Assembly: GCA_965227955.1 (NCBI GenBank)
Contig: OZ245784.1
Span: 2,206,031-2,270,030 of the forward strand
DNA: 64,000 nucleotides
Origin: Halioglobus sp.
Lineage (GTDB): Bacteria; Pseudomonadota; Gammaproteobacteria; Pseudomonadales; Halieaceae
Direction: 5' to 3'
Shown piece after piece: positions 4,991-16,786 of this stretch (position 1 is the first letter of the stretch; the number at the start of each line of letters is the position of its first letter). A model generated the notes under the pieces. It did not search any database. It worked only from the letters and a program-made list of their open reading frames with translations, and was not told where the DNA came from. The position numbers and the translations under genes are program-made.

Positions 4991-7246
<2,256 letters not shown>

Positions 7247-7428: not shown

Positions 7429-7632
7429 ATGAATAAGAACCTCGTATTTCTCGGCACCATCGGGGGGGTGATCGGGGCGATCACCTGCTTCCTGGCAGGA
7501 CTCGCCAGGGTCGCCGGCTACTACTACATGCTCGGATACCAGTCCACGACCGTGTTCAATGTCGGGGTGGGCCTCATGGTGTTCGCCTGCCTGGTCAAGG
7601 TCGAGGAAATCGCCGCGCGCGAGCGCCGGTAG
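7429..7632 (+). CDS. Small hypothetical membrane protein (two predicted TM helices)
   Basis: 67-aa ORF with GC3-rich codons and two hydrophobic stretches (VFLGTIGGVIGAITCFLAGL, VFNVGVGLMVFACLV). Weak ribosome-binding site. No family recognised. Confidence 0.35.
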   Translation: MNKNLVFLGTIGGVIGAITCFLAGLARVAGYYYMLGYQSTTVFNVGVGLMVFACLVKVEEIAARERR

Positions 7633-7780: not shown

Positions 7781-7796
7781 AGGTATACAAATTGCA
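7781..7796 (+). promoter_or_regulatory. Candidate sigma-54 (-24/-12) promoter AGGTATACAAATTGCA
   Basis: GG-N10-GC spacing with a perfect TTGCA -12 element. It lies in an AT-rich intergenic tract about 185 nt upstream of the TAT-protein start. The sigma-54 activator PrsR is encoded in the same locus. Confidence 0.55.
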
Positions 7797-7980
7797 TAAG
7801 GAAGGGTTGCACCGGCATCAAAATCGACTGTGACTCGTATCACAGACGCTGTTGATGCGGGTTTCAGCGGTAATATGGCGGTGGTAAAGTCCCGGACAAT
7901 GGCTAACCTGAATACAGGGGTCGGCGCATTGCTTGGCAGCGCCTCGGCGGCCGAATCGCCTGGATGGTACGGGGGTTAAC

Positions 7981-8379
7981 TTGGACAGTTACAAAGACAG
8001 AGACAGCGAAGGACGCGCTGGCCGCCCCGAGCCCGCCGCTACCGAAGAATTGCGCGACCCCACCCGTCGCCGCTTCTCCCGCAGCGCCCTCGCGGGCAGT
8101 GCGGTGCTGCTCTCTCTCGGCAATCGCGCCGCGTGGGGCGGGGGCACCCAGATCGCCGGCTGCATGTCGGTGATGACCGTCAACTCCTTCAACCCGGAAA
8201 CCGGCATGTTCATCTCCGCGCCCGCGGGAAGGCCGGACCACAACGAGGATCTCGCGGCGGAAATCCACCGCATCGGCGACCCGCCCGACTATCTCGGCGC
8301 AGACGGCAGGTGGAAAGTGTGCCCGGACCCCGACTCCTTCGACGGCGTATGCCTCGTCAAGGGCAGGTGCCCGGACTGA
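7981..8379 (+). CDS. Small secreted protein with twin-arginine signal and four Cys in the mature part
   Basis: TAT motif TRRRFSRSALAGSAVLLSLGNRAAWG. Mature region of about 85 aa with Cys in GC, VCPD, VCLV and RCPD contexts. GC3-rich frame. No in-frame ATG: possible starts are TTG 7981 (GGGGG 5-6 nt upstream) or TTG 7933, as in the ORF track. Confidence 0.55.
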   Translation: MDSYKDRDSEGRAGRPEPAATEELRDPTRRRFSRSALAGSAVLLSLGNRAAWGGGTQIAGCMSVMTVNSFNPETGMFISAPAGRPDHNEDLAAEIHRIGDPPDYLGADGRWKVCPDPDSFDGVCLVKGRCPD

Positions 8380-8460: not shown

Positions 8461-8730
8461 ATGACGTGGCGAGTTGAATCCCCGGGGCAGGTTTACGACG
8501 CCGGAGAGGGCTCGGTCGTGTACTTCGACCCCCGCAGTGGCGACACTCACCTGCTCAGCGACTTCGCGGCCTACCTTCTCGAACAGCTGGGGGACGGCCC
8601 CCTGGACACCGGCGAACTGGTCGCGCGCGTGGCGCCCGACGTGGAGGGCGGTGACCCGGCGGAGGTCCAGGCCTCGGTGACCGCGGCGCTGGAAGACCTC
8701 GTGTCCCTCGACATTCTCAAGCGGGGCTAG
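8461..8730 (+). CDS. PqqD-family peptide chaperone / RiPP-recognition-element protein (HPr-rel-A system type)
   Basis: 89-aa protein with the PqqD-like pattern VVYFDPRSGDTHLLSDFAAYLLEQL...AALEDLVSLDILKR. It sits immediately upstream of the HprK-related kinase. Confidence 0.75.
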   Translation: MTWRVESPGQVYDAGEGSVVYFDPRSGDTHLLSDFAAYLLEQLGDGPLDTGELVARVAPDVEGGDPAEVQASVTAALEDLVSLDILKRG

Positions 8731-8739
8731 GCCACCCAG

Positions 8740-9645
8740 ATGCAACGCCTCGGACAACTCGGTGCGGACGAACTGGGCGACAGGCTGCGCCGGGGTGACC
8801 TCGCCCTGCGTATCGGCCCCTACGTCTACAACGTCCAGAGCAATCTCGCCGATATCGCCCGCGGCCTGCACACACTGTACGCCGATTTTCCCCTCGCCGG
8901 CCCCGGCGACTATGTCGATTTCGACGTGGGTCTGCGCCAGTCGGGGCTGCGCCAGCGCCTGACGGGTCGCGCCGACTTCCTCTTCGATCGCCAGCGACCC
9001 TTCGACACCGTGCCCGCGGGCCAGTCCTACGCCTTCCTGGAGTGGGGGATGAACTGGTGTGTCTCACTGCACGTGAACGAGTACCTCAAGCTGCACGCGG
9101 CGGTGGTGTCGCGGGGCGACAGCGGGGTCGTCATGCCCGGCGTGCCCGGGGCCGGCAAGAGCACGCTCTGCGCTGCACTGGGCCTGCGCGGCTGGCGCAT
9201 CCTGTCGGACGAACACGCCATGCTCGAGCCGGGCACCACCGACCTGGTCCCGCTGTGCCGCCCGGTCAGCCTCAAGAACGAGAGCATCGAGGTCATCCGG
9301 GCGTTCTCGCCCCGGGCGGTACTGGGCCCGGTCAGCCACCAGACGCACAAGGGTGTGGTGGCACACATGAAGGCGGACCTTACCGCCGACAGCCATGACC
9401 CGGGCACAGTACCCGCGCGCTATATGCTGTTCCCGAGGTACAGCGCGACGGAGACACAGCGCCTCGCACCGCGACGGCGCACGGAGAGCTTCATCATCGC
9501 GGCCTACCACTCTTTCAACTACAGCCTGCTGGGTGAGCCGGGTTTCCGGGCCATGCGCCTGTTGGTGGAAACTGTCGAGTGCTTCGACCTGGTGTACCGG
9601 GACCTGGACTGGGCGGTCGGGGTGATGGAGGAATTGCTCGCATGA
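8740..9645 (+). CDS. HprK-related kinase A (P-loop serine kinase-like)
   Basis: P-loop GVPGAGKSTL followed by RILSDEHAML. Its size and its pairing with the PqqD protein match what I recall of the HprK_rel_A family. Confidence 0.8.
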   Translation: MQRLGQLGADELGDRLRRGDLALRIGPYVYNVQSNLADIARGLHTLYADFPLAGPGDYVDFDVGLRQSGLRQRLTGRADFLFDRQRPFDTVPAGQSYAFLEWGMNWCVSLHVNEYLKLHAAVVSRGDSGVVMPGVPGAGKSTLCAALGLRGWRILSDEHAMLEPGTTDLVPLCRPVSLKNESIEVIRAFSPRAVLGPVSHQTHKGVVAHMKADLTADSHDPGTVPARYMLFPRYSATETQRLAPRRRTESFIIAAYHSFNYSLLGEPGFRAMRLLVETVECFDLVYRDLDWAVGVMEELLA

Positions 9646-10760
9646 GCCCCCCTCCTTCCTTCGTCCTGCGGGAGGCGCTGCTCAATCCCGGCGAGGTCCC
9701 GGCCCTGAATGCCGGACAACTGGGAGGTCTCGTTACCCAGGCGAGAATCGCACGCCTGCTCCCGACCCTGGCGCTCGAGCTCGAGGCGTCGGGGGCACTC
9801 GACGAACTGGCCTGGCCGGTGCGCCGCCACCTGCTCTCCGCGGTGCTGGTGCACGAGAAACAGAAACGCGATCTCGCCTTCGACTGCGAATCGATCGGCG
9901 CCGCGCTGGCCCAGGAGGGCGAGCGCCTGGTGCTGCTCAAGGGAGGCGCCTACCTGCGCGCCGACCTGCCCGTCGGACGCGGCCGGCTGATCACCGATAT
10001 CGACATCATTGTGCCCCGCCCGTCCATCGAGGCCGCCGAACGGGCGCTCAACGAGCACGGCTGGGAAAGCGCCGAGCTCGACCCCTACAACGAGAGCTAC
10101 TACCGCAGGTGGAGCCACGAGACACCCGCCCTGTTCAACCGCAGGCGCGGCACCACCCTGGACCTGCACCACAATATCCTGCCCCCCACCGCCGGCCCGA
10201 ATGTCGATGCGGCGCTGCTGTTCGGGGAACTGCGCGAGGTGGCTCCGGGGATCTTCATCCCCTCGCTGCGTGACATGGTCATACACAGCGCGACCCACCT
10301 ATTCCACGAGGGGGAATTCCACCACGGGCTCAGGGACCTCTGGGACCTGGATCGCATGCTGCGGGACTTCCCTGCCAGGGAGGAGGATTTCTGGGCGCGC
10401 CTGGTGGAGCGGGCGCGACAGCTCCAATTACAGGAGTCGCTGTTTCACGGCCTGGTCTACGCCCGGGCGCTTTTCGATACACCTGTGCCCGCAGCGCTGG
10501 CCGCGACTGCGGGCTCGAGGGCGCAGCGCCTGCGGCGCCCGCTCATGGACTTCCTGTTCCTCCGCGCGTTCCGACCCGACCACCCGGATTGCCGCCTGCC
10601 CCTGACCGGGGTCGCGCTGAATGCGCTGTACCTGCGATCCCACTACCTGCGCATGCCGCTCTACCTGCTGCTGCCGCACCTCGTGCGCAAGGCCTGGATG
10701 CGGCGCAAGGCTTCCAGGGAGCGCAAGGATGAAACAGGAATGGCGGGCGGCGGCGCTTAA
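9642..10760 (+). CDS. Uncharacterised nucleotidyltransferase family protein (NTP_transf_5-like)
   Basis: Motifs LLKGGAYLRADLP and GRLITDIDIIVP (acidic pair). The ATG at 9642 overlaps the kinase stop (ATGA). The N-terminal extension in the ORF track (from 9579) is probably not translated. Confidence 0.7.
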   Translation: MSPPPSFVLREALLNPGEVPALNAGQLGGLVTQARIARLLPTLALELEASGALDELAWPVRRHLLSAVLVHEKQKRDLAFDCESIGAALAQEGERLVLLKGGAYLRADLPVGRGRLITDIDIIVPRPSIEAAERALNEHGWESAELDPYNESYYRRWSHETPALFNRRRGTTLDLHHNILPPTAGPNVDAALLFGELREVAPGIFIPSLRDMVIHSATHLFHEGEFHHGLRDLWDLDRMLRDFPAREEDFWARLVERARQLQLQESLFHGLVYARALFDTPVPAALAATAGSRAQRLRRPLMDFLFLRAFRPDHPDCRLPLTGVALNALYLRSHYLRMPLYLLLPHLVRKAWMRRKASRERKDETGMAGGGA

Positions 10761-13286: not shown

Positions 13287-15434
13287 TTGGAAAGTTCGGG
13301 ACTGGAGATACAGGACAGTATCCTCGGCAATATCGGCTTGTACAGCTACGGTACTGCCCTGCTCGCCTATGCGCTCCTTGTAGGCCTCGCGCTCGTCACC
13401 CGCCGCAACAACCCCCTCGGTATATCCATAGTCGTCGCCAGCTTTTTGACCGCCGCCTGGGCGGGCACGGTCACCCTGTCCGGACTCCTCATCGAACCGC
13501 GGCCGGGCCTGATACAGGTCGCCGAGCTGGGGCGCAACGCCGGCTGGATTTTCGTGCTGCTCAAGTTTATCGAACTGCGCCTGGAGGGCGGCGGGCACCC
13601 CGCGGCGACGCTGCGCTGGCTGCCGCTGTTCGGCGCCGGCTGTGCTATCACTCTCGCACTCCTGCTCGTGGCGGGCCCCTTTGCGGGGGCGCTCGGGCTG
13701 AGCATGGAGACCTCCGCCAACATCGCGTTCAGCACCTGGCTCGCCCTCTCGGTCCTCGGCCTGCTGCTGCTTGAGCAGTGCTTTCGCAACAGCAACGAGG
13801 GCGAACTATGGAGCACCAAGCACCTCTGCCTGGCGCTCGGCATCCTGTTCGCCTACGACTTTTTCATGTACGCCGAGGCGCTGCTGTTCCGGCACCTCGA
13901 CCGCAACCTCTGGCAGGCGCGCGGCGTGGTGATCACCATGGCCGCCATCCTCATGGCGGTCAGTATCCGTCGCGCCGAGCGCAGTGAAGATATCGCCAAC
14001 AGCCGCAGTATTTATCTCTCCCGCCATGTCGCGTTCCACTCGCTGACCCTGCTCGCGTCCGGCATCTACCTGATCGCCATGGCGCTGGCGGCCTACTTCA
14101 TCCGCTACCTGGGCGGCAGCTGGGGCGGCGTACTGCAGATCGCCTTCCTCTGCGGGGCGGGTCTAACCCTGGTGGTCCTGCTGTTCTCGGGCCAGATTCG
14201 CGCCCGCGCCAGGGTGTGGCTGAGCAAGAATTTTTTCTCCTACAAGTACGACTACCGCACCGAGTGGCTGGAGTTCACGCAGACTCTGGCCGGCGGCGAC
14301 GCGGATGTACCACAGAACATCACGCGCGCCATCGCCAACCTGGCGAAGAGCCCCGCGGGCATACTCTGGGGCCGGACTGAGGGCAGCCATTTCACCACGC
14401 TGGCACATCTCGAAATGCCCCACCCCGGGACGGACGTCGACCTCGGCAGCCTGCCGCGCTGGCTGCAGGAACACGAGTGGATCATCGACCTCGAGGAGTG
14501 GCGCACCGCGCCCGACGTCTACAGCAATCTTGAGATACCGCGGTCGCTGACGGAGGTCTCCCGCGCCTGGCTCATCATCCCGCTGCTCTTCGGCGAACGC
14601 CTGCAGGGAATCCTGTTGTTGCGCGAATCGGAACTGTTGCAGGAACTCAACTGGGAGGACCGCGACCTGCTGAAAGTCGCCGGCCGCCAGGCCGCCAGTC
14701 ACCTGGCGCAGTACCAGGCCGACCAAGCCCTGGTGGAGTCGCGCCAGTTCGAGGCGTTCAACCGCCTGTCCGCCTATGTGATCCACGATCTCAAGAACAT
14801 TCTCGCGCAACTCTCCCTGATGGTGTCGAACGCCGAGAAACACAAGCACAACCCGGACTTTGTCGAAGACATGGTGGGCACCGTGAGCAACGCGGTAAAC
14901 CGCATGAGCAAGCTCATGGCGCAGCTGCGCAGTGACATCGGGGAGGAAGCGCGACAGGATTTCGAGCTGGCCGCACTGCTCGGCGAGGTGGTCGCCGAAG
15001 CGGCGCTCCGAGATCCGCCGCCACAGTACGCACCCCCGCCGGTCCAGCTACGGGTGAACTGTGACCGCGATCGGCTGCACGCCGTCTTCGGTCACCTCAT
15101 ACACAACGCCCAGGACGCCACCGGCAAGCACGGTGTGGTTGCAGTCAGGCTGCGGCAAATGGGCGACAGTGCCGTGGTGGACATCGAGGACGACGGCGAG
15201 GGCATGGACGAGGAGTTCATCCAGCACCGCCTGTTCAAGCCCTTCGATTCCACCAAAGGGCTCACGGGCATGGGCATTGGCGCCTTCGAGAGCCGCGATT
15301 TCGTGCGCAGCGTGAACGGCGACATCAGCGTGCAGAGCACCCCCGGCCGGGGCTCGCTGTTCAGCGTTCGCCTGCCGGCCACGCCCGGCCCCGCCGCCGA
15401 GAGCAGAACACTGGTTGAGGATGCACAGACGTGA
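13287..15434 (+). CDS. prsK: XrtA/PEP-CTERM system sensor histidine kinase PrsK
   Basis: Multi-TM N-terminal half and a GAF-like middle region. H-box HDLKNILAQLSLM. ATPase boxes DDGEGMD and GMGIGAF. Overlaps prsR. TTG start, so the start is uncertain. Confidence 0.85.
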   Translation: MESSGLEIQDSILGNIGLYSYGTALLAYALLVGLALVTRRNNPLGISIVVASFLTAAWAGTVTLSGLLIEPRPGLIQVAELGRNAGWIFVLLKFIELRLEGGGHPAATLRWLPLFGAGCAITLALLLVAGPFAGALGLSMETSANIAFSTWLALSVLGLLLLEQCFRNSNEGELWSTKHLCLALGILFAYDFFMYAEALLFRHLDRNLWQARGVVITMAAILMAVSIRRAERSEDIANSRSIYLSRHVAFHSLTLLASGIYLIAMALAAYFIRYLGGSWGGVLQIAFLCGAGLTLVVLLFSGQIRARARVWLSKNFFSYKYDYRTEWLEFTQTLAGGDADVPQNITRAIANLAKSPAGILWGRTEGSHFTTLAHLEMPHPGTDVDLGSLPRWLQEHEWIIDLEEWRTAPDVYSNLEIPRSLTEVSRAWLIIPLLFGERLQGILLLRESELLQELNWEDRDLLKVAGRQAASHLAQYQADQALVESRQFEAFNRLSAYVIHDLKNILAQLSLMVSNAEKHKHNPDFVEDMVGTVSNAVNRMSKLMAQLRSDIGEEARQDFELAALLGEVVAEAALRDPPPQYAPPPVQLRVNCDRDRLHAVFGHLIHNAQDATGKHGVVAVRLRQMGDSAVVDIEDDGEGMDEEFIQHRLFKPFDSTKGLTGMGIGAFESRDFVRSVNGDISVQSTPGRGSLFSVRLPATPGPAAESRTLVEDAQT

Positions 15435-16786
15435 AGAACGATAAAAAACACCTGCTCGTCGTCGAGGACGACAAGGGGCTGCAGAGCCAGCTGCGCTGGG
15501 CCTTCGAAAACTTCGAGGTGGAGATCGGCGGCGACCGCACGGAGGCGATCAACCAGTTCCGCCGTATCCACCCGGGGGTCGTTCTGCTGGACCTCGGGCT
15601 GCCACCCGATCCGGGGGGCGTCACCGAGGGCCTGGCCACCCTCAGCGAGATCCTGGCGCTGGCACCTGAAACCAAGGTCATCATCGTCACCGGCGACAAC
15701 GATCGCGCCAACGCGGTGAAAGCCATCGCGATGGGCGCCTACGACTTTCACCAGAAACCGGCGGATCCCGAGATCCTGTCGCTTCTCGTCAACCGCGCAC
15801 AGCATGTCTACGAGCTGGAACGGGAGAATCGCCGCTTGCAGCAGGGCGACGAGAACATGCCCCTGCGCGGCATCATCACCGCCAGCCCGCAGATGCTCAA
15901 GGTCTGCCGAACAATCGAGAAAATCGCCCCGTCGGATATCACCACCCTGCTGTTGGGCGCGAGCGGCACCGGCAAGGAGCGCTGCGCACAGGCCCTGCAC
16001 GACCTGAGCCCGCGGGCCGAGGGTCCGCTGATCGCCATCAACTGCGCCGCGATCCCGGAGAATCTCCTGGAGAGTGAACTCTTCGGGTACGAGAAAGGCG
16101 CTTTCACCGGCGCGGCGAAGCAGACTCCCGGCAAGATCGAGTACGCCGACGGGGGCACGTTGTTCCTCGACGAGATTGGCGACCTGCCCATGGAATTGCA
16201 GGCCAAGCTGCTGCGCTTCCTGCAGGAGCGGGTGGTGGAGCGCATCGGGGGCCGCAAGGAAATCCCGGTCGATGTGCGCATACTGTGCGCGACACACCAG
16301 GACCTGCAGGCGCTCATCGAGAAGGGTCTCTTCCGCGAGGACCTCTACTACCGGATCAGCGAGATCGTTATCGAGATACCGCCGCTTCGCGAACGCGAGG
16401 GCGACGTCCTGGTCCTGGCGAAGTCTTTTCTCAACAGCCTGGGGAACGAATACAACAGCTCGGTCAAGGATTTTTCCGCCGAGGCCATCGCCGCCATGGA
16501 GGCCCATGACTGGCCCGGAAACGTGCGCGAACTCGAAAGCAAGGTGAAACGCGGGGTCATCATGGCGGACGGCAGCCAGATCGGCCCCGAGGACATGGAG
16601 CTCGCCGAGACCTCCGAGGAGCCGATGCCGCTGAACCTCAAGGAGGTCCGCGAGAACGCCGAGCGGCGCGCGGTGATCAGGGCGATGAACCATTGCAACC
16701 AGAACATCACCGAGGCCGCCAACGTGTTGGGCATCACCCGGCCCACCCTTTACAACCTGCTCGAGAGGCTCGGCCTCAAAAGCTGA
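15431..16786 (+). CDS. prsR: PEP-CTERM-box sigma-54-dependent response regulator PrsR
   Basis: Receiver domain (LLVVEDD, VVLLDLGLPPD). AAA+ domain with Walker A GASGTGKE and the GAFTGA sigma-54 contact loop. C-terminal Fis-type HTH (ITEAANVLGITRPTLYNLL). GTGA overlap with prsK. Confidence 0.9.
   Translation: MKNDKKHLLVVEDDKGLQSQLRWAFENFEVEIGGDRTEAINQFRRIHPGVVLLDLGLPPDPGGVTEGLATLSEILALAPETKVIIVTGDNDRANAVKAIAMGAYDFHQKPADPEILSLLVNRAQHVYELERENRRLQQGDENMPLRGIITASPQMLKVCRTIEKIAPSDITTLLLGASGTGKERCAQALHDLSPRAEGPLIAINCAAIPENLLESELFGYEKGAFTGAAKQTPGKIEYADGGTLFLDEIGDLPMELQAKLLRFLQERVVERIGGRKEIPVDVRILCATHQDLQALIEKGLFREDLYYRISEIVIEIPPLREREGDVLVLAKSFLNSLGNEYNSSVKDFSAEAIAAMEAHDWPGNVRELESKVKRGVIMADGSQIGPEDMELAETSEEPMPLNLKEVRENAERRAVIRAMNHCNQNITEAANVLGITRPTLYNLLERLGLKS

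Follow-up and report, generated by a model that had tools for sequence, protein, structure and literature searches.

Which protein do the enzymes of the HPr-rel-A system act upon? The HPr-rel-A pair (a PqqD-family peptide chaperone and HprK-related kinase A) is named in the NCBI annotation library without a described substrate, and neither NCBIfam nor Pfam holds a precursor model for the system. The open-access literature that we searched contains no paper on HprK-related kinase A, TIGR04352, TIGR04353 or HPr-rel-A, and a search for PEP-CTERM together with PqqD or HPr kinase returned none treating the operon described here. We analyzed a stretch of 64,000 nucleotides from Halioglobus sp. (hereafter the window), in which such a pair is part of an operon of four genes on the forward strand, in the order small protein, PqqD_rel_X, HprK_rel_A and NTP_transf_5 (Table 1). 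We conclude that the 132-residue protein encoded by the first gene is likely the dedicated precursor, and hence the substrate, of the PqqD, kinase and nucleotidyltransferase (NTase) proteins; this rests on comparison and precedent, not on experimental data.

The criterion for an HPr-rel-A system is met: both equivalog models (TIGR04352 and TIGR04353) score above their cut-offs and the two genes are adjacent. The small gene is separated from the PqqD gene by 81 nt and the PqqD gene from the kinase gene by 9 nt, while the ATG of the NTase gene at 9642 overlaps the kinase stop codon as ATGA (the longest NTase frame starts from a GTG at 9579). We considered whether an attenuator or a terminator separates the small gene from the PqqD gene and rejected this: the gap folds no better than shuffles (z +1.2) and contains no terminator-like site. 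Sequence searches of the PDB with the kinase, the NTase and the PqqD protein gave nothing significant (the lasso RRE TfuB1 was found at E 0.25). The operon is flanked by a divergent ATPase gene of the XrtA/PEP-CTERM type with an OmpA domain and by a convergent sugar dehydrogenase gene. PrsK and a PrsR-like activator are encoded 3 kb beyond the operon, the XrtA gene is found about 11 kb from the small gene on its 5' side, and polysaccharide genes abound in the surrounding locus.

Table 1. Position of the small gene, its parts and neighboring features in the window (position 1 is the first nucleotide of the window).
Feature	Positions	Strand	Basis or remark
ATPase, XrtA/PEP-CTERM type	4991..7246	-	TIGR03015 309.6 bits, just below the cut-off of 324.5
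67-aa open reading frame	7429..7632	+	two predicted membrane helices (MNKNLVFLGTIGGVIGAITCF...)
Sigma-54-type -24/-12 promoter element AGGTATACAAATTGCA	7781..7796	+	match to NGG-N8-TTGC[AT]
Leader RNA, -12 element to start codon	7797..7980	+	about 185 nt
34-codon small open reading frame	7875..7979		inside the leader RNA
CDS, 132-aa leader-bearing protein	7981..8379	+	TTG start; stop at 8377-8379; open reading frame and homologue alignment
Polar, acidic N-extension	7981..8064	+	residues 1-28; subfamily motif SFTDKDS
Twin-arginine leader TRRRFSRSALAGSAVLLSLGNRAAWG	8062..8139	+	residues 28-53; probable signal-peptidase site after AWG
Mature domain, about 79 aa	8140..8376	+	Cys-x-Ser start (C61, S63, S69); two inferred disulfide pairs, C61-C124 and C114-C130
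HPr-rel-A system PqqD-family peptide chaperone (RRE)	8461..8730	+	TIGR04353 53.9 bits (cut-off 35); PF05402 E 1.6e-6
HprK-related kinase A	8740..9645	+	TIGR04352 330.1 bits (cut-off 200), E 8.7e-99
NTP_transf_5 nucleotidyltransferase	9642..10760	+	PF14907 E 1.7e-48
PrsK and PrsR-like activator	13287..16786		

The reading frame of the small gene is open from a TTG at either 7933 or 7981 up to 8379 (+), giving 132 residues when read from the latter. We favor the start at 7981, because the N-termini of the homologues align there and a GGGGG (7971-7975) is found 5 nt upstream: 119 homologous clusters (about 128-140 aa long) start at the corresponding alignment position and share the N-terminal consensus xxxFTDKDS. 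With E-values of 1e-22 to 1e-85 and identities of 44-80%, these homologues show that the small gene is far beyond chance. Invariant in the subfamily are R29, R30, F32, S33, V42, L46, R49, A51, C61, M62 and S63, and further on S69, F70, P72, F77, S79 and C124. Cysteines are found at residues 61, 114, 124 and 130, the last close to the C-terminus (...KVCPDPDSFDGVCLVKGRCPD). No family in Pfam or NCBIfam matches the small protein, nor any of eight representatives of the other precursor types discussed below.

Most of what an earlier note had read from the sequence alone is confirmed by these comparisons. It had placed the gene first in the kinase operon and had recognized a TAT-type leader followed by a mature region with four cysteines; both claims held, with the mature part now put at about 79 residues. 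Of the two TTG codons that it had left as possible starts, the second is preferred. Its statement that the frame lacks an in-frame ATG is true only for the part ahead of the RR motif, as ATG does occur at codons 62, 65 and 76, all of them inside the mature part. The duplicated CPD motif that it had described failed as a conserved feature and is rejected as a motif, since it is not conserved across the subfamily alignment; the cysteine positions alone are conserved.

In the genomes sampled, the small protein is always linked to the kinase operon. When the subfamily alignment was used to scan GTDB species, each represented by one genome, 35 loci were returned, all from Halioglobus, Haliea and other Halieaceae with the exception of one 3.9-kb contig binned as Bacteroidia. 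The PqqD and kinase genes directly follow the small gene in 35/35 of these species-level loci, and the NTase is present in all 33 where the contig extends far enough; the order is that of the window (reverse-strand ATPase, small protein, PqqD, kinase, NTase, reverse-strand dehydrogenase). In a sample of 151 genomes of the family, 25 carry the small protein and 49 the kinase, and every one of the 25 small-protein matches lies less than 1 kb 5' of the kinase. Thus, the expectation that homologues always precede the PqqD/HprK-rel-A pair held (35/35 and 25/25), and no homologue without the operon was found in either set. The reverse case, an operon without homologues, had been named as a result that would refute the substrate hypothesis, and it does occur for the mature domain; the slot then holds another leader-plus-Cys protein. 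The hypothesis fails this test for the cargo only and not for the recognition part, because the slot is filled by the same leader-plus-Cys module.

This module is seen in nearly all of the other kinase loci. The remaining 24 kinase genomes of the family, as well as the kinase loci of the class and phylum samples, have a different open reading frame in the same slot. Taking the family and class samples together, a leader-plus-Cys frame lies 5' of the PqqD-kinase pair at 82 of the 84 kinase loci, both exceptions being contig ends. In the phylum sample the slot is occupied in this way at 24/28 loci and the other four genomes carry such a frame elsewhere (one divergent at a distance of 330 nt, one 2.5 kb upstream and, where the assembly is fragmented, two on a separate contig). 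The slot proteins vary from 74 to 257 aa and their C-terminal parts cannot be aligned with each other (the cargo ranges from about 12 to about 200 aa), yet the N-terminal plan is shared: a polar acidic stretch of 15-40 residues is followed by [ST]-R-R-x-[FL]-x-[KR] and then by a short uncharged stretch ending in ...[LM][ST][LV][AG][NS][RK][PA][AV][WFL][GA]. Among 74 diverse precursors, the 20 residues ahead of RR are rich in S, A, D, E and T (mean net charge -1.7), and the first cysteine follows the first arginine at a distance of 25-47 residues in 74/74 (25-34 in 72 of these).

A profile-profile comparison of the window subfamily with the most common type, of about 200 aa, confirms that the homology comprises the N-extension and the leader up to the cysteine only (97%, E 5.6e-11 over 51 columns). 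Two traits of RiPP-type systems are consequently met: a conserved leader with a variable core, as judged from the profile-profile result and the non-aligning cargos, and a precursor gene that adjoins a discrete RRE and tailoring enzymes, in the same order in nearly all loci. The sequence of the N-extension is not conserved between precursor types, and the conserved serines are found at different offsets (C+2/C+8 in the window subfamily against C+3/C+7 in the common type).

Three further loci deserve separate mention. The smallest precursor seen, of 74 aa (locus L075:787-1008 (+), genome G226), has a typical RR leader and a core of only about 12 residues, GSACISCNASLI; the series therefore spans from peptide-sized to protein-sized precursors, and this one is a good candidate for chemical analysis. 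In locus L151 (genome G616, contig 8, 63088-66607) the leader-bearing gene is separated from the PqqD-kinase pair by a same-strand frame of at least 316 aa, which might be an added tailoring enzyme. Genome G547 (contig 1, 449807-451381 (-)) has two tandem leader-bearing frames of 77-79 aa, one with an internal TAA, adjoining an HprK-like kinase for which TIGR04352 gives a score of only 81 bits. This locus could belong to a separate, related system that has several small precursors.

To assess the size and specificity of the family, a 63-position profile of the module was searched against 1.84 billion cluster representatives, yielding 3,233 representatives at E <= 0.001 and 365 at E <= 1e-10. 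The top 148 matches all have RR with a cysteine 25-45 residues later, with a Ser/Thr at Cys+1 or Cys+2 in 144/148, and the ten matches that we looked up are all "hypothetical" or without a name. In the genome of the window the leader profile scores 72.6 bits at the small gene against at most 23.8 bits at any other site; it is therefore not a generic detector of Tat signals, and the genome contains one such protein.

The association was also evaluated in both directions on 400 class-level genomes (leader profile at E <= 1e-6, kinase above its cut-off). The kinase is present in 31 genomes and the leader module likewise in 31, with 29 genomes common to both. The listed leader matches adjoin the kinase wherever both are on the same contig (the match in G509 is on another contig). 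The two genomes with the kinase only are explained by a contig end and by an atypical leader; of the two with the leader only, one has two leader frames of 77-79 aa beside a diverged HprK-like kinase and the other remains unexplained. Genomes that are related do not count as independent observations, but the 29 shared ones come from many families. An exosortase is found in 28 of the 31 kinase genomes (25 above the XrtA cut-off) against 105/401 overall, a tally that includes genome G291, flagged as unpublished and used for no other claim made here.

The pattern of cysteines provides further information on the mature part. Four cysteines are present in 71/77 sequences and only C61 and C124 in the other 6/77, while a further sequence, P0074, has only C114 and C130. 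This paired co-variation points to two disulfides, C61-C124 and C114-C130, which we infer on this basis alone, and to a life outside the cytoplasm; it also argues against acylation of C61. Conservation of the first cysteine might be purely structural, owing to the disulfide, and not linked to any modification. An AlphaFold2 model reaches a pLDDT of about 90 over residues 57-130, though no convincing fold match in the PDB was found (best Foldseek E 3). A wide VIA-align search with the same model gave at best a Z of 3.2, for a roadblock-like arrangement, which is within noise. For the common 200-aa type the fold search likewise returned no convincing relative in the PDB.

The leader agrees with the twin-arginine consensus S/T-R-R-x-F-L-K: the window protein has T-R-R-R-F-S-R, and the 74 precursors have S/T at -1 in 55, R-R in 73-74, F/L at +3 in 72 and K/R at +5 in 54. 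A short, weakly hydrophobic h-region, a c-region and an A-x-A-type site are also present (SALAGSAVLLSLG followed by N-R-A-A-W-G in the window protein), with positions +19 to +24 conserved as [NS]-[RK]-[PA]-[AV]-[WFL]-[GA], including a basic residue in the c-region. At about 53 residues the signal would be long. TIGR01409 (E <= 0.01) and PF10518 (E <= 0.1) do not match the window protein, and its relatives score 13-18 bits against the curated Tat-signal models, which are very short, remaining below the cut-offs. Since these short models miss the window protein, the Tat assignment rests on the features of the leader, and export by Tat with cleavage after G53 is an inference. TatC itself is encoded in the window genome (E 2.4e-73, above cut-off). 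The PqqD protein, the kinase and the NTase lack signal peptides; any action on the small protein therefore has to precede export, which would make Tat, a carrier of folded proteins, a sensible route. That Tat exports folded substrates was given as background in the earlier note; it serves here as the rationale for modification followed by export.

Upstream of the gene, a sigma-54-type element (NGG-N8-TTGC[AT]) is located in the 450 nt preceding the RR codon at 50/75 non-redundant loci against 4 expected from shuffles, consistent with regulation by the NtrC-type PrsR. In Aquincola, a PEP-CTERM gene has been shown to depend on sigma-54 (PMC9850573). In the window the element is separated from the start codon by a long leader RNA that is without explanation, and other loci of the genus have a similar spacing (the element lies at -275 to -303 relative to the RR codon). 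A 34-codon small frame inside this leader RNA was considered as the true substrate and is rejected, since it is present only in the window genome and conserved in no other locus.

Two neighbors of the operon can be described further. The ATPase is fused to an OmpA-like domain, with a long Glu-Pro repeat and a membrane segment as the connection, and its N-terminal part is kept at 70-85% identity in the 33 loci whose flank reaches that far. Between the ATPase gene and the sigma-54 element lies a 67-aa frame that is conserved in 31/35 subfamily loci and has no family in Pfam or NCBIfam. It is also found in loci of the common type (L027, L029, L030, L032, L036-L038, L061, L066 and L071) and could possibly be a further component of the system.

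Taken together, the proposed pathway would run as follows. The operon would be transcribed from the sigma-54 promoter, probably under control of PrsK/PrsR. In the cytoplasm the PqqD-family RRE would bind the N-terminal module, i.e. the extension, the twin-arginine leader and the region around C61-x-S63. The HprK-related kinase would then phosphorylate a conserved serine just past the leader, perhaps several times (S63 and S69, both invariant in the subfamily, are the best candidates), and the NTP_transf_5 enzyme would extend the phosphate with a sugar or a nucleotide-derived group. The folded and decorated protein is predicted to leave through the Tat translocon, with ordinary signal peptidase I cutting after AWG. 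The two disulfides would form outside the cytoplasm, and the product may act in the exopolysaccharide matrix of the XrtA/PEP-CTERM system. Cytoplasmic modification, chaperoning by the PqqD-like protein and Tat export had been inferred as one coherent pathway in the earlier note; this is supported by comparison and precedent, even though PqqD binding, the site and chemistry of modification, export, cleavage and the matrix function are all still inferred. What is shown is the gene itself, its conservation and synteny, the two-way co-occurrence of leader and kinase, the promoter motif, the cysteine co-variation and the presence of TatC in the genome. Some points count against the substrate reading: the leader lacks a YxxP/WxxP motif of the kind bound by known RREs (PMC13381572), the offsets of the conserved serines differ by type, and the related genomes are not independent.

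The main rival explanation is that the small protein is an unmodified, co-transcribed and exported component (of the matrix or the periplasm) of the exopolysaccharide system, while the enzymes act elsewhere: on another peptide, a PEP-CTERM protein or a sugar or lipid carrier. In its favor, evidence of a modification is lacking, the locus is rich in polysaccharide genes, and a confidently folded small domain with two disulfides could work undecorated. We nonetheless consider it unlikely. No other candidate peptide is conserved (the 34-codon frame is found only in the window genome), and the cargo changes completely between loci whereas the leader-plus-Cys module and the enzymes stay together, which is expected for recognition of a leader and not for a fixed structural partner. 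Moreover, enzymes of the same three families modify an adjacent precursor in the Bacillota pathway for linear polyphosphorylated peptides (LPP; Popov et al., Nat Commun 2026, PMC13381572).

Two other alternatives concern the leader. If it were an uncleaved signal anchor, the protein would remain in the inner membrane and expose its polar N-tail to the cytoplasm, where the kinase would phosphorylate this tail as part of a signaling or gating device. The N-extension (about 28 aa, rich in Ser, Thr, Asp and Glu, with SFTDKDS conserved in the subfamily) would suit this role, and it would be the sole part permanently accessible to cytoplasmic enzymes. However, the uncharged stretch counts just 13-15 residues or so with an arginine on either side, the A-x-G/A site and the basic c-region residue fit a Tat signal better than a membrane helix, and the sequence of the extension is not conserved between types; we regard this explanation as very improbable. 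The remaining possibility, a Tat-exported lipoprotein, reads IAGC (residues 58-61) as a lipobox, with C61 acylated after cleavage by signal peptidase II. I-A-G-C indeed fits [LVI][ASTVI][GAS]C and many subfamily members have x-x-G-C. Across the 74 precursors, though, the residue preceding the cysteine is often one that a lipobox bars, namely Q, V, N, H or R (G, Q and V occur 13 times each, N 7, H 4 and R 4 times), a charged arginine and 11 polar or glycine residues separate the h-region from the cysteine in the window protein. In addition, C61 and C124 are present or absent as a pair, as expected of disulfide partners, and an acylated cysteine cannot be such a partner. With the lipobox criterion not met, the lipoprotein reading is rejected and can be all but ruled out.

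Returning to the protein as a dedicated precursor, a bolder version of this reading can be formulated: the twin-arginine signal itself would be the leader that is read by the PqqD protein, in a form of Tat proofreading for post-translational decoration, with release to the translocon only after the leader-adjacent serine has been polyphosphorylated and extended by NTP_transf_5. We lean slightly against it as the evidence stands. If true, there would be a large Gram-negative class of leader-guided, Tat-exported, phospho-decorated peptides and small proteins, comprising at least 3,233 clusters at 50% identity (profile matches, the neighbors of which are not part of the count), tied to exosortase exopolysaccharide loci and controlled by sigma-54. 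Independently of this version, the HPr-rel-A pair now has a candidate substrate family that is large, almost perfectly co-distributed with the kinase and easily recognized by its RR leader, the cysteine at a fixed distance and the Ser/Thr beside this cysteine. XrtA/PEP-CTERM loci underlie the formation of flocs and biofilms, so the product may possibly be a matrix component, a role worth testing in floc-forming bacteria.

Some of the proposed steps have counterparts in known systems. TorD, DmsD and NapD bind a specific twin-arginine signal and hold the substrate until its maturation ends. Such Tat proofreading chaperones serve the insertion of cofactors into redox enzymes and have folds that differ from PqqD; to our knowledge no PqqD-family protein acts as one, and the likeness to the role proposed here is by analogy, in idea alone. 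Bufferins (DUF2282 precursors with an MNIO enzyme and a DUF2063 RRE partner) are similar in being RiPP-type precursors with a signal peptide in place of a classical leader and with periplasmic export (PMC12710340). They differ in using a Sec instead of a Tat signal as well as other enzymes, and they lack a specific leader motif (PMC12710340), whereas the signal peptide is strongly conserved here.

Closer in chemistry are the phosphorylated and phosphoglycosylated lasso peptides (paeninodin and pseudomycoidin), in which the leader is bound by a PqqD-like B1 protein, an HPr-kinase homologue phosphorylates a precursor serine ahead of maturation and, in pseudomycoidin, a nucleotidyltransferase adds a hexose to the phosphoserine (PMC8498205). 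The lasso macrolactam synthetase and B2 protease are both absent here, and the lasso target is the C-terminal serine of a core of about 20 aa, in contrast to the present family, where the C-terminus is not conserved as serine.

The closest parallel is the LPP pathway, with core genes for an SpI-like peptidase, a discrete RRE (Pfam PqqD), an HprK-like kinase, NTP_transf_5 and an MsbA-like exporter (PMC13381572). Its precursors are 35-200 aa long with a conserved N-terminus and a variable C-terminus, and the clusters are found in capsule and polysaccharide loci (PMC13381572); the earlier concern that the window protein is larger than a normal RiPP precursor is answered by these lengths. Ser3 of the core receives several phosphates from the kinase, and the peptidase requires the RRE and works poorly on unphosphorylated precursor (PMC13381572). 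The LPP NTase was inactive in a heterologous host (PMC13381572), and the chemistry of the NTase step is for this reason left open here as well. Our operon shares the set of PqqD RRE, HprK-like kinase and NTP_transf_5 (domain names as in the LPP supplementary table), the precursors with conserved N- and variable C-terminus, the SpI-type removal of the leader (proposed here) and the setting in a polysaccharide locus; the likeness rests on enzyme families, without a sequence comparison to LppK, LppB and LppN. It differs in its hosts (Pseudomonadota), its XrtA/PEP-CTERM loci and the conserved Cys-x-Ser start of the core. The LPP leader carries the motif YxxPxVLxHQxIxFETxxS and is not a signal peptide; this motif is absent from both the window protein and the consensus of the 74 precursors, in which a twin-arginine signal takes the place of the LPP leader. 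As the SpI-like peptidase (LppS) and the MsbA-like exporter are both missing from the cluster, we do not file the operon as an LPP member. By analogy, it would work like LPP with the Tat leader replacing the dedicated peptidase and the ABC exporter. The comparison links the HPr-rel-A system to a pathway that was shown experimentally in 2026 and described by its authors as restricted to Bacillota (PMC13381572), indicates a large unstudied Gram-negative counterpart of LPP-type phosphorylated peptides in slime-making clusters, and suggests a Gram-negative solution for export, namely Tat for a substrate decorated in the cytoplasm.
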